Source: Callorhinchus milii
Lineage: Eukaryota
Direction of reading: 5' to 3'
Length of the DNA stretch: 64,000 nt
NCBI RefSeq assembly: GCF_018977255.1
Contig: NW_024704742.1
Span: 39,310,001-39,374,000, forward strand
In this document: positions 8,111 to 63,302 of the stretch, piece after piece
How positions within the stretch are numbered: position 1 is the stretch's first letter
How the letters are laid out: each line of letters begins with the position of its first letter
Translations under genes and position numbers: made by a program
The notes under the pieces: generated by a model
What the model was told of the DNA's origin: nothing
What the model saw: only the letters and a program-made list of their open reading frames with translations
Database searches by the model: none

Positions 8111-8182
8111 CTGCTGGGGGGCAGACTTGGTTTCATATTTTCTCCTCCAATAGATCTATGTTGCACTGTTTTCGTAAATTGC
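8111..8182 (-). other. Candidate spliced exon (72 nt)
   Basis: Minus strand tattattttctctatcag|GCAATT...CCAGCAG|gtaagc; one open frame, QFTKTVQHRSIGGENMKPSLPPS; no recognised homology. Confidence 0.35.
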
Positions 8183-8646
8183 CTGATAGAGAAATAATAA
8201 ACTTATTCTGAGCAAAATCAAAATTGTTTTCATTACTTTACTTAATACAGTTTACACATGATCAATACTAAGTGCACGATAAACTCTTTTGTTTCTATTA
8301 AACCCAGGTAAAACCCAAAGGTAGAAAATAAACACAAACATTCAAAATTAATAATTTACATTATTGACATTTGCATTGCATGTTTGAGGTAACTACACAG
8401 GAGTCACTGGAAATAAAATGTAAAGAATTATGCTGGGACTGATTGAAAAAATCATTGCATCAGTGTATTTTTTAAAAAATCATCCCTTCCCCAGAGCGCA
8501 ATGGTTATGTCCAATAAAATTTCCAAGCTAAATCTGCCCTGAATGCAGAGATTGGTGTTTGAGTGCAGCTAATATGATTAAGTTAGTGAAGAGGCACTTA
8601 AATGCTGCCTCCAGAAGCTCAAATGAAACTTGGGTTTGATTAGTAT

Positions 8647-8893
8647 TAATAATAATAATAATCCTTGCATTTGATATAGCGTTGTTCACATCTTCTAGAG
8701 GTCTCAAAGCACTTCACTCACAGAATATACTGTGAAGTAAATTGACTGTATATTTGTGGGCAAAATGCAGCAGCAAATTGTGCACAGCAGTGTCCCGCCC
8801 TGCCAGGAGTCGAACACAGGTCTCTCACTTGCAAGGCGAGCGCTTGAACCACTGAGCTACAGGACTCCACAACCACTGAACTACAGAACTTCC
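8647..8893 (-). mobile_element. Young tRNA-Ala SINE with internal deletion and duplicated 5' end
   Basis: Head joined directly to GGGACACTGCTG; ACCACTGAGCTACAGGACTCC is repeated imperfectly at ~8872-8893. Confidence 0.88.
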
Positions 8894-10129
8894 TCGTTCT
8901 AGCATTATAAATAATAATACTAGAACAAGTGTTCCATTTGATATAGCACTCTATCATATTGTTGAGACATTTCAAAGTGCTTCAAAGGATATACTGTAAA
9001 GTGATGCGTCAGTGTGTATTATTGTGGACAAAGTGAAACTCAGTGGAAGAAAAAGGAGTTAAATGGTTTGAGGGAGGAAAATAGAAGAGGAGAGAAAGAC
9101 TGACTGAATCTAGCTGCAACACCAGATTGCTTTGTCTCTTTCACTTGTTTGTTTAACATTCTGTGCAAAGCTGATGATGGAAAGATTCTCCTGACATTGG
9201 TAAAGAATAGCAAAGCACAGGAGCAATCACAAGCAATAATTAGATTGTTCTTCATGGCTGTTCCTTGCAGAATTTGACTAAGAAATGAACTGTGAAAAAG
9301 ATGGTAGATGGCCTTATCATGCTAATGAATAAGTGGCAGGTGGGCGGCAGGGTATTGCTGGCTTATGAACAGGCTGCTCTCCCGCAGTGGTTTCCATATA
9401 AATAGTCTTTTTTCTGAGCTGGGCTGTTTCCGGGAGATAGAGAAGTGGAGAGCAATCGCTTCTCCTGAGGGAAGTAAGGAAACATCAGAGGGCAGATCAC
9501 CCTTCACTAGATAAATACCTAAAAAAGAATCAGCTAAAGGGGTATGGGGAAAGGGCATGTAAATAGAACTGAAAGGAATGCCCTTAAAAGAGCCAGCACA
9601 GACACAGTGGCCTGAATGGTCTCTTGTACTGTATAATTCTATGGTTCTTTGGTTATACTTGCCTCACCCACTCACCCACATAGGCAGTGAAAAAANTGCG
9701 ATTAGCTGTGCCACTTGGCCATCCTTTTTGGAAGGAAAAGTTTGTGAGAAAGTGAAAGAAGAGAAATTGAGAAAGGGTCAAAATAACTTATAAATGTAAT
9801 GGTTCAACAAATGTTGTTTTCTTTCAAACCAAATCCGTGTTGAAGTACAACTAAAATTAAAAAGTACAATTGCAATAGATGAGTGCTAACATCATCAAAA
9901 AGATACACATATCACAAGGTCACAAGAGTAGTTTGGATGAAAAGCGCCCTTTGGCCCACCTGATCTCATCCCTCCCCACTATCGTCTCCCATTACAGCAC
10001 CAAGCTGCATTTTAAATGAGTTCTGTGTGCTGGGCTCAACCACTGTTCCCAGCAAACTGTTTCAGTCATTAATTTTGTATTTGGAGGTCTGCTTGCTCTA
10101 GTTTTACTCGGAAAATGTTTTCTCCTACC

Positions 10130-12175: not shown

Positions 12176-13240
12176 GCAGTGGTTGAGGTTGAATCTATAC
12201 TAGTTTCAAAAGGTCACTAGATAAATATCAACCATGAACTCAAAGTCCCAATGTGGGACTTGAACCCACAACTCCAACAATGAGCTTCAAATAAGACCTC
12301 ATCAGCATATCCTCAGCTCCACCGTAATACCGACAAAAATGGAACCTATCGGAATCCCATTTTTATTTTCAGAGCTTGCTGCATAAATTCATGGAATAAC
12401 AACCTTACTCTTTCAATATCACTATGGAAACTAACAACCTAACCAAATCATTTCCATGTAAATGCACCTAAAAGACCTCTTCCACTTCTACAACTCTTCC
12501 CCCCTCTCCTCAACCTCAATATGGGATGGGCGCTTGAAGCATTTTAGGCCAAATCTGGATGCTACCTGTCTTCAGAAAATCTGAAATTCAGAGGGAGTAT
12601 TTCAAAGACATTTTAGCCTTGTTCTTTAAATAAGGAACAAAACGTCTTCGGTAATACACCACTGAAATTTTGAACCTCACTGTGTTCCCAGATAATTCCA
12701 GATAACGGTGAGAAGTGTGACGTGAACAGGTGATGAAAGGCTGCAAAATAATCTTTGAAATCTCAATAAATGTGAATCAAATGGTATTTATAATTATAAT
12801 AATAATCCTTGGATTTGATATAACGCCTTATCACGTTGATGAGACGCCTCAAAGCTCTTCATACGATATACTGTAAAGTGGATTGACTGTATATACTATG
12901 GCAAAACTGTGAATCCACATTGGAGACCGAGGGGTGAAAATGCAACATTTTGTAACAGATTTGAATTAATTGAGAGAGTTTCTCCCAGTGTCCTGGCCTA
13001 CAAACAAAAAATGATCATTCACTTCATGGCTGTTTGTGGGATATTGCTGTTGGCAAATTAGCTGCTACATTTGCCCTCACATATGTAATCGTTACACTTC
13101 ACAGTAAAATCCAATGAAACATTTTTGAGACATATCGATGACTTGATAAGACACTATACCAAATGCAAGAATTATTATTAATCAGCATATTATTCATTTC
13201 AGGTTAGATTAAAATAAGAAATTGAATCCAATTGAATCCA

Positions 13241-13669
13241 AGTCCTGTAGCTCAGTGGTTAGAGCACTCGCTTTGCAAGCGAGAGACCTGAGTTCAATTC
13301 CAGGCAGGGCGAAACCTCGGGCAAGTTTCCTTACTCCACACGCCTAATAATAATCCCTCCAAAACCAAAAACAATAATAAATTGGTCATTTTCAATCTAC
13401 GACTGTTTGTGGGACAAATATACAGTCAATTCACTTTACAGTGTGTTCTGTGAAGCGCTTTGGGACGTCCTCCCGACGTGGAAAGCGCTATATCAAATGC
13501 AAGGATTATTATTATTATTATTATTATTATTGCTGTGCGCAATTGGCTGCCGCGTTCGCCCACAAATATACAGTCAATTCACTTTACAGTGTGTTCTGTG
13601 AAGCGCTTTGGGACGTCCTCCCAACGTGAAAAGCGCTATATCAAATGCAAGGATTATTATTATTATTAT
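13241..13669 (+). mobile_element. Young tRNA-Ala SINE with rearranged, doubled 3' end
   Basis: Two near-identical 3' ends, each with a (TTA)n tail (ending ~13531 and ~13669). Confidence 0.95.
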
Positions 13670-14789
13670 AAACGCAACCTCAGCTGCCAGTCAGTTTAAT
13701 TGCACCAGTGAATATTTTTGTACTCTGCTTCAGCTGGCCTTGTGAAACCTCTGGTATATGTCCATCTTCTATTCACCTTTGCCTAAATATAGTTTGTACC
13801 ATTCTGCCGGACAATTACATGCCTGTGAATGAGCTTTGCTACAAATAGCTCCGACTGTGCACAATGGTTATCAGCATTGTTAAAAATAAAGAGGCGGCTG
13901 AGTTTCTCCCAGAGTTGCAGAAATAAATGCACTGTGTGAAACAGAAAGTGCTGCACTGGGCTGAGACCAGGCCCAAGGTCATTTTGTTCCATTGCGGTTA
14001 TTGAGCCAATGCACCTCATATTTTCTATTTGATAAGATCTTTTTCTTGCTTTCCTTGATAATGATCAGTTACATTTTCATCAGCGCTTCAGTCACTTAGG
14101 ACTGTCATTGTCACCCACCTCTATTAGCCAGTATAATAACAGTAGCTTCACCGGCTAGTCTGAACCCCTGATTGTTTCCAACACATACTTTAGTTCACTG
14201 CCAGTATTGTTCCCTTTTTCTACTGTCATTTTCATTACTGCATCAATTTTCTTTCAAGATTAGTACTCACAATTTAGATAAGTCCACCCTCATTCATGCT
14301 GCAGGCTGCCACCACAAAGCTCATGGTATAACAAACGTTCTCTCTGGGTTGCGAACAAGGTTTTAGAAAACCAAAGGAGATAGTCAACCATCTGCGATCC
14401 CTAATTTCGATTAATGCTCTCCATGAGTTTGCAATAAATGGGTTCAGCTAGCATATAAATAAATGAAAAGCACAACAGCTGACAACGGCAGGTTATTGAA
14501 GTACAATTCTTCCAGGATACTTCAAGTGCACTTCAAATTCAATTGCATGAATGCTGCACCATTTCAAAACATCCTCCTTGTGATAACTATTATTATATTT
14601 CCAAGTTGAATTCCATGTGCCACCAGTTTTACAAGCCATTTAACCGTGTCAGCAGGTATTACCAAACGTAAAAATAAAATAATGGTAATCCTTGCATTTG
14701 ATATAGTTGTGCCATACCACATTGTTATAATGCCTACAAAATATACAGTCACGATACTTTACAGTAAATCCTGTTAAGCGCTTTGAGAC

Positions 14790-15275
14790 TTGATTTCAAG
14801 ATCCTCATCCTCACCTACAAGGCCATTCACGGCCTTGCTCCCTCCTACCTCTCCAACCTACTATCCCCCTACCTACCTGCCCGTACCCTCCGTTCCTCTG
14901 GCTCTGATCTGCTCCACGTCCCCCGCCCCAACCGCCCTACCATCGGTGGTCGGGCCTTCAGCCTCTCAGCCCCCAGGCTCTGGAACTCCATCCCCCAGTG
15001 CCTTCGCCTTGCTTCCTCCCTTTCCTCCTTCAAGGCCGGTCTCAAAACCTTTCTCTTTGACCGTGCCTTCAGCTTCCCTCTCGACTCTCTTCCCCCTCCT
15101 CGCTCCCTCCCTTCCCTCCCCTCACCCTGACCATTTCCCCCCTCCTTGCTCCCTCCCTTCTCTCACCCTGACCATTTCCCCCCTGCTCGGGTCATGACCC
15201 AACTGTGCAGCGCCTTGGGACGTCCTCCTGACGTGAAAGGCGCTTTATAAATGGAATCTTGTTGTTGTTGTTGTT
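14790..15275 (+). mobile_element. L2 LINE 3' end, little decayed
   Basis: DFKILILTYKAIHGLAPSYLS...GGRAFS...LWNS...FKAGLKTFLF; tail GCGCCTTGGGACGTCCTCCTGACGTGAAAGGCGC then (TTG)n; ~45-bp tandem duplication at ~15090-15183. Confidence 0.95.
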
Positions 15276-19559: not shown

Positions 19560-20912
19560 AAGAATCATTGATTAAGGATGTGGTAGTGCGGTATTTAGAG
19601 GAGCACAATATAATTAGGCCAAGTCAACATGGCTTTACAAAAGGGAAGTCATGTTTGACAAATCTCATAGAGTTTTTTGAGGATATTTCCAGTAAACTAG
19701 ATAAGGGTGAATCAGTGGATGTGGTCTATTTGGACTTCTAGAAGGCATTCGATAAGGTGCCTCATAAAAGGTTAGTCCAAAAGATAAGGGCCCATGGAAT
19801 TGGGGGGAGCATATTAACGTGGATTGGGGAATGGTTAACGGGTAGGAAAAAAAGAGTAGGGATAAACGGGTCCTTTTCAGATTGGCGGGATGTGACTAGT
19901 GGAGTGCCACAAGGATCAGTCCTTGGGCCTCAGCTATTTACATCTACATCAACGATCATGATGAGGACATCAAAGTTAATATATCTAAATTCGCGGATGA
20001 CACAAAACTAGGAGGAAGTGTCAACACGGAGGACGACATTAAAAAAATGCAGCGAGACATAGGTAGGTTAGGTGATTGGGCAGGTAGGTGGCAGATTAAG
20101 TAAAACGTAGGGAAGTGCAAAGTCATCCACCTAGGTAGCAAAAACAGTAGATCGGGTTATTTTTTAGAAGGGGAGAGATTGAATGTGTTCGCGTCCAGAG
20201 GGACTTGGGTGTCCAATCACAGAAAGTTAGTCTGCAGGTGCAGCAGCAATTAGGAAGGCGAACGGTATGTTAGCATTCATTATGAAAGGATTAGAGTATA
20301 AGAGTAGGGAAGTCTTGCTGCAACTGTATAGGGCCCTGGTGAGACCACACCTGGAATACTGTGTCCAGTTTTGGTCTCCTCATTTAAGGAAGGATGTACT
20401 TGCCTTGGAGGGGCTGCAGCGTAGATTTACCAGGTTAGTACCAGGGATGAAGGGGTTGAGTTACAAGGATAGGCTGACCAATTTGGGCCTATATTCTCTA
20501 GAATACAGAAGAATTAGAGCGGTTCTTAAGAAACCTATAAGATCATCAAAGGGCATGATAGAGTAGATAGTGGCAGATTGTTTCCCCTGGTTGGAGAAAC
20601 TAAAACCAGGGGTCACAACCTTAAAATCAGAGGCCAGCCCTTTCGCACTGAGTTGAGGAAAAACTTCTTCACTCAAAGGGTGGTGAATGCATGGAACTCA
20701 CTATCCCAAAGGGCTGTTGACTGTCAGTCATTGAACATATTCAAGACTGAGATAGATAGATTTCTTATTGCAAAAGAGATTAAGGGATATGGGGATAAGG
20801 CAGGGTCAGGTTATTAGCTGGAGTTAGGTTAGAAGATCAGCCATGATTGAATGGCGGAGCAGGCTCGAAGGGCTGAATGGCCTACTCCTGCTCCTACATG
20901 TTATGTTATGTA
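19560..20912 (+). mobile_element. CR1 LINE, 5'-truncated, RT domain and intact 3' end; disrupted
   Basis: AFDKVPHKRL, SGVPQGSVLGPQLF, SKFADDTKLGG, RPHLEYCVQFWSP, TRGHNLKI; stops and frameshifts; ends GGCCTACTCCTGCTCCTAC followed by (ATGTT)n. Confidence 0.96.
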
Positions 20913-21285: not shown

Positions 21286-21960
21286 TTAATCAAGGAGCTT
21301 GGTCCTTGTCTTATCTATCTCCTTTTCTGTAATCATTTTGAATCTTATTTTATTATTATTACTAGCCCTGAGGTTCTCCCCCACAGTTAAATTCATAACC
21401 TGATCCGACTCATTATCTATAACAATGTAGAGTAGCGCTTCTCCTTTTGTTGAAGTTTCTATATATTTGAACAGAGTCCTGCGCACATTGCAAGAACTAT
21501 CTCCTCTGTGCCTCCTACTCCCTCCTCCCTTTCTCTGCCAGTCTATCTGGGGATAATTCAAATCCCCTATTATTATTACTTTTTTTTGCTCATCTCCCTT
21601 ACCTGCTGCATATTTCTTCTTCTACTTCTTTTCCCCTGTTGTGCACTCTCAATAGTGTGGCTAGTCCTATTTTATCCTTTATCTGTAACCAGATGGATTC
21701 TGTCTCCAATCCTCATTATTTATCTCTCTCCTTTTCCAGTGTGATTATAGAGTCTTGTGACTAATACCCCCACCCATTTTCTCCTCTCTGTCCTTTCTAA
21801 ATATAATGTATCATGCAATATTCAATTGGCAAGCACGTCTAGGTTGTAACCATGTTACTGTTAATGCAATTACACCCAATTTCTCACTTTTGATACCATC
21901 TCCAGTTCTCCCATTTTGTTCCCCATCCTCTGTGTGTTGTAGTACAGGCAATGTAATGGA
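21286..21960 (-). mobile_element. Old CR1 endonuclease-region fragment
   Basis: NYPQIDW...TKGEALL...VGENLRASNNNKIRF resembles the CR1 GDFNYP...SDHN region. Confidence 0.75.
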
Positions 21961-22292: not shown

Positions 22293-25200
22293 CCTCTCCT
22301 GATAACTGAAGTCCCTCATTCCTGGTACCATCCTGGTAAATCTCCTTTGCACCCTCTCCAATGCCTTGACATCCTTCCTAAAGTGTGGTGCCCAGAACTG
22401 AACACAATACTCTCGCTGAGGCCTAACCAGTGTTTTATAAAGGTTCATCATAACTTCCTGACTTTTGTATTCTATGTCCCTATTTATAAAGCTTAGTATC
22501 CCGTATGCTTTTTTAACAGCTTTATCTACCTGTCCTGCCACCTTCAAATATTTACTTATATGAACCCCCAAGTCTCTCTGTTCCTTCAACGCCTTTAAGA
22601 TTGTACCATCAGCTTATATTGCCTCTCCTCATTCTTCCTCCCAAAATGCATCACTTACATTTCTCCACATTAAACTTCATCTGCCACATGTCTGCCCATT
22701 TTACCAGTCTGTCTATGTTCCCTTGCAGTCTACTACTATCCTCCTCACTGTTTACTCCTTTTTCTAGCTTAGTATCATCTGCAAACTTGGAAATTATACT
22801 CCCTATACCCAAGTCCAGGACATCTATATAAATCAAAAACAGTAGTGGTCCCAATACTGATCCCTGGGGGACACCACTGCACACATCCCTCCAGTCAACA
22901 ACAGTTCACCACCACGCTCTGCTTTCTGTCTCCCAGCCAGTTCTGTATCCATGCTGCCACTGTCCCTTTAATACCATGGGCTTCTATTTTGCTTACAAAT
23001 CTCTTATGTGGCACTTTATCAAACGTCTTTTGAAAATCCATATAAACTACATCAACTGCACTACCTTCATCCACCCTTTCCATTACTTCATCAAAAACTC
23101 TATCAGGTTTGCTAGACATGATTTGCCTTTAACAAGTCAGTGTTGACTGTCTTTTATTAATCCATATTTTTCTAAGTGAAAATTTATTTTGTCCCGGATT
23201 ATAGTTTCCCCACTACTGTCATTACCCTGACTGGTCTGTAGTTCTGGATTTATCCTTCTGCCCCTTTTTGTACAGGGCTGTAACATTTGCAACCCTCCAG
23301 TCCTCTGGCACCACCCTGGTATCCAAGGAGGATTGAAAGATTGTGGCCAGAGCCTCTGTTACTTCCACCCATACTTCCCTCTGTAACCTAGGATGCATCC
23401 CGTCCGGACCAGGTGACTTACCTACTTTGAGCACCGACAATCTTTTTAGTTACCTCCTCTCGGTTTATTCTTATCCTATCCAATTTCTCTACCCTCTCCT
23501 CCATACTGTGCCATTGGCTGCATCCTTTTATTTTGTGAAGACAGATGCAAACTACTCATTCAGTACATCAGCCATGCCCTCTACCTCCCTAATTAGACCC
23601 ACCCTACCTTTGACTAACCATTAATTCTTTATATGCTTATAAAATAACTTAGGGTTCCCTTTTATGTTACCCATTAATCTTTTCTCATACAATCTCTTTG
23701 CTCCTCTTATTTCCTTTTTCAGGTCCCTTCTGTACTTTCTGTATTCTATTTGATTAACTTCTGTATTTTGGACCTCACATTTATCATGAGCCTCCTTTTT
23801 CTGTTTTATTTTAATCCTAATTTCCTTATTCATCCAGGGAGGTTTGAATGCCCTACCTTTCCCCTTTGTGGGAATGTATTTGTTCTGTCCCCAAACTATC
23901 TCCTCCTTGAAAGCTTCCCATTGCTCATTAGCTGTTTTACTTGCCAATCTTTCTTTCCAGTCCCTTTTTAACTCACTGAAATTCTTCCAGTTGAGTATCT
24001 TCACCTTTGATTGCTCCTTATCCCTTTCCATAAGTACTCCAGACCTAACGATGTTGTGATCACTGTTGTCCAGATGTTCTCCTCCTGAAACCTGCTCTAT
24101 TTGCCCCACTTCATTCCCCAGAACTAGATCCAGCACTACTTCCTTCTTTGTTGGGCTGGAAACATACTGATCCAGAAAGTTATCCTACACACATTTCAGG
24201 AATCCTTCACCCCTCCTTGCCCTTTACACTGTTATTTTGCCAGTCTATGTTAGGATAATTGAAGTCCCCCATTATTACTACTCTATTCATTTTGCATCTT
24301 TCTGAAATATGCTTGCAGATTTTCTCATCTATCTCCTTCCCACTATTTGGTGGTCTATAGTATACACCTAACAGAGTAACAGTTCATTTTCTGATCCTGA
24401 ACAAATAGATTGTGTTTTTGGACCCTCCAGCACATCGTCCCTTTCCAGGGCCCTAACCGTGTCTTTAATCAATATTGCCACCCACCTTCCTTTTTTTCCT
24501 TCTCTATCCCTCCTGAATACATTGTAGCCAGGAATATTCAGTTCCTATTCCTACCTTTGTTTGAGTCTCCGTTATTGCCACTACATCATAACCCTATGTG
24601 GTAACTTGAGCCTGCAACTCACCAATCTTATTTGTCACACTCCATGCATTTACGCACATGCACTCCAAGACCGACTCAGTCTGTTCTGCATTTCTGTCCC
24701 TTCTAATCCCTCCTTTTTCTGGATTACTCCTTATTACGTTGCTATTCGTCTCTCCCAGCCCTCTATGTAACTTGTTTGTCCTCAGAACTCTGCTGCCCGC
24801 CTTCTCACCCGCACAAAACTCTGCTCCCCGATCAGTCCTTGCCAGACTGCACTGGCTGCCTATCCCAGAGAGAATCAATTTCAAGATCCTCACCCTCGTA
24901 TTCAAATCCCTCCAATCCTCTGCACCCCCCTACCTCTCTGACCTCCTCTCTCCTCAGCACAGTACCCGTTGCTTTTGTTCCTCCAGTTCTGGCCTCCTCC
25001 TTGTCGCCTGAGTTCTCCGCTCCACCCTCGGCGGCCGTGCCTTCAGCCACTATGCCCCAAGGCTCTGGAACTGCATTCCTTTGCCTCACTTCCTCCCTTT
25101 CCATTTTCCGGTCTCTGTTGAAGACCTTTCTTTTCGACCGCGTCTTTGGTCACCTTCCCCCCCTCCCCCTGGCTCAGTCCCGGGATCCGTTACTGTAAAG

Positions 25201-48129: not shown

Positions 48130-49470
48130 TCAGAGTCCAGCAGAACATCCCAAAGTGCATTCAGAGTGTTGGATGGGCAGCCGAGCTGGAGATGGGAGTT
48201 GAGGGATGGAGAGGTGAAACATGTTCAAAAGCAGGGGTAAAGGGGTACATTTTGAGACATGCCTTGGAGAGAGGAAGCGAATCAAAGAGATTTCGACATG
48301 GAGTTCCAGAGCATGAGGGCTGAATCGCTGAAAGCAAGCCTTCTGATGGGGTAGATGGCGGGGGACATAAAGCAGGCCTGTGCTTGCTGAGGGAAGGGAG
48401 CAGCTGGTCAATAGGGTTGAAGAAGCTTGTAGAAGTGAGGAGAGGTGAGCATGTGGAGAGATTGAGGATCTTGAACTTGATCCACTGAGGGATGGGGAGC
48501 CAATGGAGGTGAGTGAAGATGGCCCTGATAGATTCACAGAGCCTGGTGCAGGAGAGGACACAAACTATGGAGTTCTAGATAGTTTGCAGCTAGTGTAGGG
48601 AAAAGCTCAGGTGTCTAATTAGCAGAGCATTGGCATAGTCAAGCCTGTACATGATAAAGATATGATCAGGGTTGTGGCATTGTGACAGGTAGAGGTAGAA
48701 GCGGGCAGTGTTTTGGAGGAAGGGAAAGCTGAGCTAGTCAGAGCATGGACGTGGGGTTTGAAAGACAGTTGGGAATCAACCAAGATTCCGCACCAGCTCC
48801 ATGAGATGGAGTGTGCATTCATGCAGGTTGATGTTTCAGCCCTGAGGTGAGAAGGCGCTGACAGGAGACCTCTGTCTTCTCAAAATTCAACTGGACGAAG
48901 TTAGCTCTCATTCAGGACTTGATAACCAACAGGCTATCAAGCCTGTTGATCGGTCAGTGGTCCTGGAATCGAGGGCAACGGCAGAGAAATAAAGTTTGGT
49001 CTCATCTGCATACATGTGGAAGGTAACCCCATGTCTGCGGATGATGTTGCTGAGTGAGAGTATATAGATAGTGAAGAGGAGAGGACCGAGACAGAGCCCT
49101 GAGGAATGCCACACGTAATTGTGTGGGGGTGGGAGGAGAAGCTGTTTGAAGAGACAAAGTGGAGATGGTCGGATAGGTAAGAGTGAAACCAGGAAAACAC
49201 AGAACCATGAAGATTGAGCAGATGAGTAGTAGTAGAGAAAGACAAGAGTGGTCAACAGTGTCGAAGGTAGCAGAGAAATCGAGGAGAGTGAGGAGGCAGA
49301 GAGATTCCCGGTTGCAGATGAAGAGAATGTCATTGGTGACTTTGACAAGGGGAGGTCTCAGTGCTGTGGATTGGGTGAAAACCGGATTGTAGGGCATCAT
49401 GCTGGGAGTGCTGGGAAAGGAAAGAGAGAAGCTGGGAAGCAATGACTTGTTCCAGCATCTTGGAAAGCAA
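48130..49470 (-). mobile_element. Older L2 LINE fragment
   Basis: LVKVTNDIL...LLDFSATFDTVDH, GIPQGS, FHMYADETKLY. Confidence 0.9.
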
Positions 49471-60454: not shown

Positions 60455-60865
60455 TCAGACAGGCAGGTGGGACTTGGTTTAACGTCTCATCCAAAGGATG
60501 CCAGCCCTCCCCCAGCACTATGTTGGGAATGTCAGCCTTGACTATATAATTGTAGTTTCCTTAGACCACACGCCTAATAATAATCCCTCCAAAACAAAAC
60601 AATAATAAATTGATCATTTTCAATCCACGACCGTTTGTGGGACACTGCTGTGCGCAATTGGTTGCCGCGTTTCGCCCACAAATATACAATCAATTCATTT
60701 TACAGTCTATTCTGTGAAGCACTTTGAGACGTTGAGAAGATGTGAAAAGCACTATATCAAATGCAAGGATTATTATTATTATTATAAGCTTAAAGTCCCA
60801 TCATGGGGCTTGAACGCAACTTCTGACTCAGAGTCGAGAATGCTACCAAATGAGCCAAGTCGACA
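60455..60865. mobile_element. Old SacSINE1-like copy (-) with a 5'-truncated young SINE (+, ~60555-60784) inserted
   Basis: Minus-strand Deu block and head flank a plus-strand SINE body with (TTA)n. Confidence 0.85.
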
Positions 60866-61013
60866 TACAGAAGTCGATATTTAATGAACCCATTTCATAA
60901 GAAACTGGGATGTACGAGCAAAGTTTGCTGTATCTTTTAACAGATTCCTCATCTTAATAAGCACATGAAATGCTTTAATGAGTGCAGAATATTAAGGAAT
61001 ATAGAGGCAAAGT

Positions 61014-61634
61014 TGATGATATTCCATGACACATTCCTTGTGTTAATTAGCATAAGAAACTCTTTAAGGAATATGCTCAATCTTGCTCATGATTAGTACC
61101 CCCATTGCTAGCCAAAGTTAAAAAAAACACATTTTATATATTAATTCTCATGATGTACATCAGGTTCCTGGTGAAGATCAATATCGTGGCATAGACAGGA
61201 TCCCAGTTAAGGCCATAAGAGTTTAATTAAGGGATTCCCTTCTCTTTTAAACCGACAGGCAAGTGGATGGGAAGGCGTGATTACATGGAAGTCCATACTT
61301 AGTTCAAGAATGAGTAAGACATTTGCCAGTATTGCCTAAAACATTCCACATGCTAATAAAGATAAGGAATGTACTAAACGATACTCCAAATTTTGCCCAT
61401 ACATCCTATGTTCTTATGAAGTGGGCTCTGCTGCTGTGTTTACTCTATGCTAACTCCCTGCTCGCTGGACTTCCCAACTCTTCCCTCAACAGACTGCATC
61501 CTTATAATATATAAAATGTGTTTTTTTTAACTTTGGCTAGCAATGGGGGTACTAATCATGAGCAAGATTGAGCATATTCCTTAAAGAGTTTCTTATGCTA
61601 ATTAACACAAGGAATGTGTCATGGAATATCATCA
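61014..61634. repeat. Perfect 130-bp inverted repeat (61014-61143 / 61505-61634)
   Basis: Base-by-base reverse complement, including the A8/T8 run; 361-bp spacer. Confidence 0.97.
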
Positions 61635-62300
61635 GTGGAGTCCTGTAGCTCAGTGGTTAGAGCACTCGCTTTGCAAGTGAGAGACCTGAGTTCAATTCCA
61701 GGCAGGGCGAAACCTTGGGCAAGTTTCCTTACTCCACACGCCTAATAATAATCCCTCCAAAACAAAAACAATAATAAATTGGTCATTTTCAATCTACGAC
61801 TGTTTGTGGGACATTGCTGTGCGCAATTGGCTGCCGCGTTCGCCCACAAATATACAGTCAATTCACTTTACAGTCTATTCTGTGAAGCGCTTTGGGACGT
61901 CCTCCCGACGTGAAAAGCGCTATATCAAATGCAAGGATTATTATTATTATTATTATTATCCAGAACTCTACAGCTTGTCTCCTCTGCCATACCAAGCTCT
62001 GTGAACCAATCACCCCAATCCTCATCCGGCTCCACTGGCTCCTCCTCCCTCAGAGGATTGAGTTTAAAATCCTCTTCCTCATTTCCGCTTCACAGTAAAG
62101 CCCTCCCTCGCTTTACGATTTCTTAACACCACACCAACCTGTCAGGTCCCTCCATTCAGCAGGCACTAGCCTGCTCAGTGTCCCTCGACCTGTCTGCCCC
62201 ACCATTGATGGACGGGCCTTCTGCTTTTCTGTCCAGCGCCTTGGGACGTCCTTCTGATGTGAAAGGTGCTATATAAATGGAATTTGTTATTGTTGTTGTG
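61440..62300 (+). mobile_element. Decayed L2 3' fragment split by the inverted copy plus SINE
   Basis: YANSLLAGLPNSSLNRLH before 61505 continues as IQNSTACLL...LHWLLLPQRIEFKIL after 61959; (TTG)n tail. Confidence 0.9.
61635..61959 (+). mobile_element. Young tRNA-Ala SINE, full length
   Basis: Complete head, body and (TTA)n tail. Confidence 0.96.
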
Positions 62301-63302
62301 CTTGAACTCCATTGAGTAATTTATACAGAGGAGCAATAGTTTTCCTTCATTCACAAACAGGGAAAACAACACACGAAAATTGTAAAACTACCACACAGCA
62401 TTCATAGTACTCACAAGAGATGTCCTATACTGTTGAGTAAAGCTACTAGCATTAACGATAATTATCTGATTTTCATCAAGACTTCATTTTTACATTTAAC
62501 ATTGGAAAGTCAAAACTTTGGAATTTGCAAATTAGAATCCATTGATCTGATCCTGCTACCTAATGTAAGAATATCCTTTTACTGCAGGAAACATATCATT
62601 CTGATCAGCATACTTCAGGTAGATAATTTGTTCATGTGCTTTAAATGGGTTTCTGCTCCATTTGGTGCGTTTCACCAATTTGCCCCGTGTGCCTAAAAAT
62701 ATATCTAAAACAATTTAAAATGAATAATTTATTTTTACACCTTCAATATCTGTTTTAAGATTGCATTGGAGGTATTTCTAATTTCACAAACCTACCGAGC
62801 GTAACAGAAAGATGTTACTCCACATGAATACATTGATCGCCCAAGATGTGTCTCTCTACTGCTGGAAGAAATGGATACACATATCTAACTTTGTCTTCTC
62901 TGGAACCATTGTTGAAGGAGTTAATCAGCATAGCAATACCAATTTGCGTTTGAAATTTACTTTCCATATTCATTACTCTTTGGGAAAATGTTTCTCTTTC
63001 TCCTGAACCGACTTGGAGTCTCTAGTTTTGCTCTCATGATCAATAAATACATTTTCATCATAATAATCCTTGTAGTTGATATAGCACCTTATCATGTCAT
63101 TGAGACTCAAAGCACTTCACAGAAAATACTGTAAAGTGAATTCACTCTATATTTTGTGGGCAAAATGCCCACATCTCTAAACGTTATAAACTTTTCTTCA
63201 CTCAATCTATTTTATGTTAATGAAAACAAACTCAACACTGTGAGCCTCTTCACATACATTTGCCCATGTCACTCTTCTCTGAAAGCCTCTCCATTAGTTT
63301 AA

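Follow-up and report, generated by a model that had tools for sequence, protein, structure and literature searches.

How does a perfect inverted copy of local DNA come to lie against the first base of a retroposon? The question is raised by a locus in the 64-kb stretch of DNA analysed here (the window), in which a host segment of 130 nt recurs in opposite orientation and leads directly into a young SINE. We examined the anatomy of this structure, its support in sequencing runs, its likeness to known systems and the routes by which the copy could have been made, and set the results beside a sequence-only reading of the same DNA.

An exact inverted copy of host DNA abuts a full-length SINE

The sequence-only reading had described an exact 130-bp inverted copy, and our comparison confirmed it: the inserted segment (61505-61634, minus strand) is the reverse complement of the template arm (61014-61143, plus strand) at 130 of 130 positions. 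Complementarity stops at each edge, the arms have unrelated flanks, and the 361 nt that separate them (61144-61504) would form the loop of the foldback proposed below; the last ~60 nt of this spacer are the left part of a host LINE fragment. Measured from the insertion site, the template lies 361-490 nt away. The arms are the longest exact repeat pair at most 6 kb apart within the window (the runner-up, of 77 nt, lies in SINEs), and BLAST of 60800-62400 against the window found no third copy of the 130-mer. The inverted part bears no likeness to the SINE, its source being host DNA.

The template is original host DNA within an older element (60886-61428) that is absent from the sequence-only reading. 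The 92-nt inverted ends of this element (60886-60977 and 61337-61428, 77% alike) enclose the template, and repeated subterminal units lie at 60931-60973 and 61020-61062 and, inverted, at 61330-61372; we infer that the element is MITE-like. When the left host end was folded as single-stranded DNA, the old inverted repeat gave a long rod (z -2.5, 20 shuffles). Folding was considered as a guide of the end points of the copy and rejected, as no fold boundary falls at 61014 or 61143. In the same region, the final seven bases of host DNA ahead of the inverted copy are exactly complementary to 61362-61368. A short initial patch of 7 nt templated at these positions could account for the odd host letters there, but a match of this kind turned up in 5-9% of resamples, and we do not claim it.

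The SINE (61635-61959, plus strand) is full-length and young, with a tRNA-Ala(TGC)-like head at 61639-61710, a LINE-like 3' end and an (ATT)n tail at 61937-61959. Its head was matched by Rfam RF00005 and by ARAGORN as tRNA-Ala(tgc) at 61640-61709. The first six bases are common to 6 of the 13 other copies and the first three to 8 of them, with unrelated DNA preceding, and immediately before 61635 the four sequencing runs described below have 27, 20, 22 and 24 loose contig ends. From these shared starts and loose ends it follows that the inverted copy, whose last base (61634) abuts the SINE at 61635 as had been claimed, touches the true first base of the family. Compared with its three closest copies in the window the SINE has 95.3-96.6% identity, and 3 of 303 sites are private, differing from all three. 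The family is abundant and young, with 13,000-15,000 contig pieces per run at 99% or more.

Over 77 nt, the 3' end of the SINE is 77.9% identical to the tail in which the host LINE fragment ends, and the element was apparently mobilised by L2 machinery. The SINE fits the published description of the CmiSINEs (PMC5499810), which served for the comparison in place of a consensus. CmiSINEs (SINE2-1_CM / SINE2B-1_CM) are described as having a tRNA-Ala head, which the SINE here matches, a tail 78.6% like L2-2_CM and recent activity; the likeness of that tail to L2, at ~78%, would correspond to the 77.9% found here if the host LINE were L2-2_CM.

Two other SINE loci in the window have structures of their own. 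At 13237-13669, a SINE with a ~38-nt internal deletion and an (ATT)n tail is followed directly by a second, 5'-truncated copy, which is 97.9% identical to 61813-61953 and starts about where the deletion of the first copy starts; this double SINE may be a re-priming or template-switch product. At 8641-8892 (minus strand), a SINE without ~100 nt of its body is preceded by an imperfect direct ~22-nt copy of its own head.

Target site and junctions

The copy and the SINE together interrupt an old LINE 3' fragment, which we label L2-like from a protein motif and from the sequence-only reading. Its left piece (61445-61505, plus strand) is 77-83% identical to four other copies in the window, and its right piece (61956-62297, plus strand) includes the fragment's own tail (62224-62297). 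The two pieces align consecutively to other window copies, so that the LINE alignment resumes across the insert just as the sequence-only reading had it. In a related LINE copy at 48465-49218, RVT_1 was matched only weakly (E 0.0015), short of the Pfam cut-off.

TTAT is found on both sides of the insert (61502-61505 and 61956-61959, plus strand), as a candidate 4-bp target-site duplication. The last T of the left copy, at 61505, is shared with the inverted copy and can be assigned to it or to the host; when it is counted as host, five other LINE copies have one base fewer at this site. Because of this extra base, and because the right copy is inseparable from the SINE tail, the duplication is a candidate only. 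At the host/copy junction, at most 1 nt of microhomology is in register (T 61505); pairing of 2-3 nt is found only in slipped registers, which fail to yield the observed letters. At the copy/SINE junction 0 nt are shared.

Support from sequencing runs

To assess the structure in sequencing data we aligned contigs to 60800-62700 from four runs (X1-X4) of one organism and one study, which contained 74-78% of the sampled words. These are 4 of the 24 runs listed; runs of other organisms (shares of at most 0.10) were left out. The template arm is covered by contigs of all four runs without listed differences. In run X3, a 65-nt contig (61470-61534, depth 4.8) spans the host/copy junction with 0 differences; its 35 nt of host are followed by 30 nt of copy, where the bridging rule asks for 31. 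This junction was spanned in one of the four runs. X3 contigs moreover end at 61143 and resume at 61114, a pattern that we read as the branch expected of an inverted repeat in a 31-mer graph, and the run may come from the assembly's own animal. In X1, X2 and X4 single contigs are continuous across 61143; contigs cannot show absence. No contig spanning the copy/SINE junction was among the 32 pieces listed of ~205,000. An empty allele did not appear in the contig alignment either, which passed over 61930-61967, dropping 5 joints in that segment, and gave 15 of 260 joints.

The depth of the contigs over 61056-61119 was 17, 11.4, 9.1 and 8.5 in the four runs, against 14.4, 7.8, 6.8-10.3 and 7.2 on single-locus contigs, and it reached millions on the SINE bins. 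An arm depth so near that of a single locus, beside millions on the SINE, shows that the 130-mer, at 95% likeness, is no high-copy terminal repeat. The depth is slightly raised near 60982-61055 and 61120-61183, as if a few related pieces existed elsewhere.

The right-hand contigs (300, 300, 295 and 301 nt, 288 aligned in each) have projected ends at 61956, 61956, 61961 and 61955. An end at 61956 would matter since filled and empty alleles would part there; the four ends disagree and the records may be truncated at this point, and we did not use them as allele evidence. At 61204 the window base differs from all four covering runs and at 62361 from all three; these differences are private variants or assembly errors.

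Likeness to known systems

By its anatomy, the structure most likely falls into the class of foldback inverted duplications found at non-LTR insertions, a rare kind already known from human L1. Foldback inverted duplications of 52-220 bp have been described 5' of somatic L1 target sites, in 3 cases (0.3%) plus 1 case (0.1%), and attributed to extra DNA synthesis at resolution (PMC10191854). There, as here, the inverted host duplicate comes from the 5' side of the target, is joined to the 5' end of the element and leaves the original in place. The L1 insertions were found in somatic clones, whereas the present insertion, of a SINE that L2 apparently mobilised, lies in an assembled genome of fish type and has a candidate duplication of 4 bp and an (ATT)n tail instead of poly(A). 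Given these published duplications, the earlier statement that a long local inversion is unusual was overstated.

A second account of L1 (bioRxiv 10.1101/2024.12.14.628481; 2024 version PMC11702581) derives inverted duplications from a self-annealing reciprocal end, with the target-site duplication kept. In both of its duplication cases the homology is 2 bp and the hairpins are small; its homology-free (0-bp) cDNA join comes from an inversion example. The copy is on the reciprocal (5') side there and at our locus, but here the homology is at most 1 nt and the loop 361 nt. Among the templated insertions of tumour L1 (22 cases, with 3,598 insertions in the classification; bioRxiv 10.1101/2024.08.27.596794), a host template of less than 250 bp is likewise copied into the insertion, but these templates typically lie at most 15 bp from the site, compared with 361-490 nt here.

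In zebrafish, ~40-50% of ZfL2-1 and ZfL2-2 inserts have extra 5' bases templated from the flanks (PMC4245944, PMC4760211, PMC2666801), and jumps have been proposed as the source of these nucleotides (PMC2666801 and PMC4760211). Our locus, apparently the work of L2 and with a candidate 4-bp duplication, resembles these L2-clade inserts and their duplications of 3-5 bp, a range in which L2-clade target-site duplications peak (PMC4245944). The zebrafish extras, by contrast, amount to several nucleotides and occur in LINEs rather than in a SINE, and the accessible text of these papers describes no 130-nt inverted copy. Double-strand breaks in yeast undergo local foldback synthesis followed by end joining with 0-5 bp (lengths of 10 to >150 bp; PMC11724301). 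The product is the same, but no retroelement takes part, and the priming inverted repeat, of 10 bp, is imperfect and encloses a loop of 41 nt. No such structure appears in the accessible parts of PMC13174262, PMC2912911 or PMC3415434, and a screen of the open-licence literature by title and start of abstract gave no case of a foldback duplication at an L2-driven SINE. The features of note at the present locus are only the long spacer and the missing microhomology.

A proposed route through foldback of the host end

We lean slightly towards one retrotransposition event in which the free 3' end of the host folded back and served as primer. An L2-type protein would have nicked the bottom strand at TTAT, and the (ATT)n tail of the SINE would have primed full-length cDNA from the right-hand end. 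The top strand would then have been cut, and resection of the left-hand end over 490 nt or more would have left a single-stranded 3' tail with its terminus at ~61505. Resection of a left-hand end exposes the top strand. This host end may have folded onto its own strand at 61143, with a loop of 361 nt, where a DNA polymerase would have copied 130 nt leftwards as far as 61014. Release of the new strand and its blunt joining to the cDNA end at the first base of the SINE, followed by gap filling with the template left intact, would give the order host, inverted copy, SINE, host. The product of this last step is what we observe; the order of the steps and the priming end are our reconstruction. The "fill-in" of the sequence-only reading covers such a foldback of the host end, which is the published model, only loosely.

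Several features favour the foldback. The copy is inverted, lies 5' of the insert and measures 130 nt, so that side, orientation and size are as in the human L1 class (52-220 bp). The join to the cDNA has 0 nt, like the homology-free joins described for remodelling of the reciprocal end, and the candidate 4-bp duplication lies in the range of 3-5 bp where duplications of the L2 clade peak. Other features speak against it. The priming homology in register is at most 1 nt, against 2 bp in the human cases and an imperfect 10 bp in yeast, and twelve sites in 60500-61489 that pair with the host end over 4-7 nt, including a 7-nt one at 61362, were left uncopied. The 361-nt loop compares with small hairpins in human and with a typical template distance of at most 15 bp in tumours, and the host site is one base longer than the other LINE copies, which makes the duplication uncertain. 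No listed contig spans the copy/SINE junction or shows an empty allele. The long spacer and the near-absent microhomology do not fit neatly with a small-hairpin model.

Alternative explanations

The strongest competitor is also a single event, with the cDNA as the primer. At the 5' end of the SINE RNA the reverse transcriptase would jump, without homology, onto a local bottom-strand piece of 130 nt (61143 to 61014, with its 3' end at 61014), either a DNA fragment from resection or a local minus-strand RNA, and copy it to its end, and the product would be attached to the host. The identical sequence would result if such a DNA fragment were ligated directly. We regard this route as possible but doubtful. 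The junctions, with 1 and 0 nt, have no real microhomology, which is expected if both are the physical ends of a fragment. Template jumping has been proposed for the 5' extra nucleotides of zebrafish ZfL2-2 (PMC2666801, as unpublished data), and co-insertion at L1 has been described for a local pre-mRNA in one case (PMC10191854) and for cleaved flap DNA (PMC11702581). Yet a free bottom-strand fragment would be required 360-490 nt from the nick, whereas the foldback uses a strand that is exposed anyway, and the frame and exon scans of the window recovered no transcript or gene over the locus. Moreover, the preprint that reports the 0-bp cDNA join interprets it as end joining, not as template switching (bioRxiv 10.1101/2024.12.14.628481). 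The sequence-only reading had the SINE cDNA copy the opposite strand; a single event at the 5' join has held up, but the cDNA is not established as the copier, since a foldback of the host 3' end results in the same sequence. In a broader form of the same idea, L2-driven SINE insertions in this lineage would often be completed with 100-200 nt of local DNA or RNA of the opposite strand, captured at a distance of hundreds of bases, with the reverse transcriptase jumping without homology rather than a small hairpin folding back; this we consider unlikely.

Three further explanations deny that the copy and the SINE share an origin, or that the copy exists. Two events would mean a plain SINE insertion and a separate break repair or replication template switch at its edge, in this or the reverse order. 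The SINE has 3 private sites while the arms are identical, which does permit a later date for the copy, but the breakpoint would have to fall by chance on the exact first base of the SINE (p ~0.0007 to 0.001), and the SINE has lost no base, which makes two events distinctly improbable. That the inverted copy is absent from the animal's DNA and arose in assembly is more improbable still: the perfect identity of the arms, the unbroken contigs of X1, X2 and X4 across 61143 and the listed pieces, none of which spans the copy/SINE junction, would agree with an artefact, but the X3 contig at 61470-61534, with 0 differences, and the branching of X3 at 61143/61114 speak against it. Misassembly, which the sequence-only reading had named as something that would overturn it, is unlikely at the host/copy junction given that contig. 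It is hardly credible at all that the 130-mer belongs to a multi-copy transposon, as its terminal repeat or another piece of it, or that gene conversion homogenised a pair of old arms. Such a reading could point to the template's place within an old element with inverted ends and to the slight extra depth near 60982-61055 and 61120-61183, but the window holds no third copy, the depth is near that of a single locus and the arm flanks are unrelated, and at 95% likeness it is largely refuted; the multi-copy terminal repeat that had also been named as a threat to the earlier claims fails on the same depth and copy number. A terminal inverted repeat of a DNA transposon or MITE was rejected on the near single-locus depth and on the position of one arm, which splits the LINE and touches the SINE. 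A 5' inversion by twin priming was rejected as well, the inverted part being host DNA and not the element's own RNA.

The copy and the SINE as probable products of one event

The copy and the SINE very probably arose in one event. Of the 14 SINE 5' ends in the window, the one at 61635 is the only one preceded by a local copy, and the chance that a random breakpoint in 64 kb comes within 1 nt of any of these 14 ends is p ~0.0007. Around the 26 SINE matches of at least 80%, only two other flank matches exceeded 12 nt, both of them direct; one lies at a tandem SINE and one at a tandem repeat. From the identity of the arms, their divergence is less than 2.3% at 95% confidence. If the 1% private change of the SINE were all due to age, identical arms would be expected with p ~0.07, a value that is low yet not exclusive because the true source copy may be closer; the age of the SINE and that of the arms are compatible. 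A recent single event tied to the 5' join of the SINE, as the sequence-only reading had proposed, is supported by the position of the copy on the exact 5' base, by the identical arms and by the single case among 14 SINE 5' ends.

Meaning of the locus

The locus is a scar, a real but rare by-product of retrotransposition without known function. It suggests that the foldback duplication of human L1 occurs also with a SINE apparently using L2 machinery, in a cartilaginous fish. The SINE family being abundant and young, its junctions across the genome could discriminate a foldback from a template jump. Should homology-free capture of local DNA or RNA prove frequent, the tens of thousands of young SINEs would keep supplying the germline with long perfect hairpins, and they would form a large natural data set on which end primes the 5' extra DNA at non-LTR insertions.

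If transcribed, the locus would yield a perfect double-stranded stem of 130 bp. The stem that the sequence-only reading had foreseen does fold in silico: RNA folding predicted it at -312.8 kcal/mol (z -21.8, 20 shuffles), a result that is trivial from the sequence.

Gene context in the window

With a possible pre-mRNA template in mind, we performed a Pfam scan on 123 of the 124 unique-sequence frames of at least 60 aa; the frame with the single N of the window (at 9696), 152 frames of 45-59 aa and 161 shorter minus-strand frames were left out. In these 123 frames, only remnants of reverse transcriptase or endonuclease and three weak matches below the cut-off were found. A rough exon scan gave a candidate 72-nt minus-strand exon at 8111-8182, with strong splice sites and a proline-rich end, and a protein search with this candidate returned two unrelated repeat proteins only. 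The LINE remnants comprise RVT_1 at 19742-20008 (plus strand) and 22654-22905 (minus strand) and a weak endonuclease match at 21289-21621 (minus strand).
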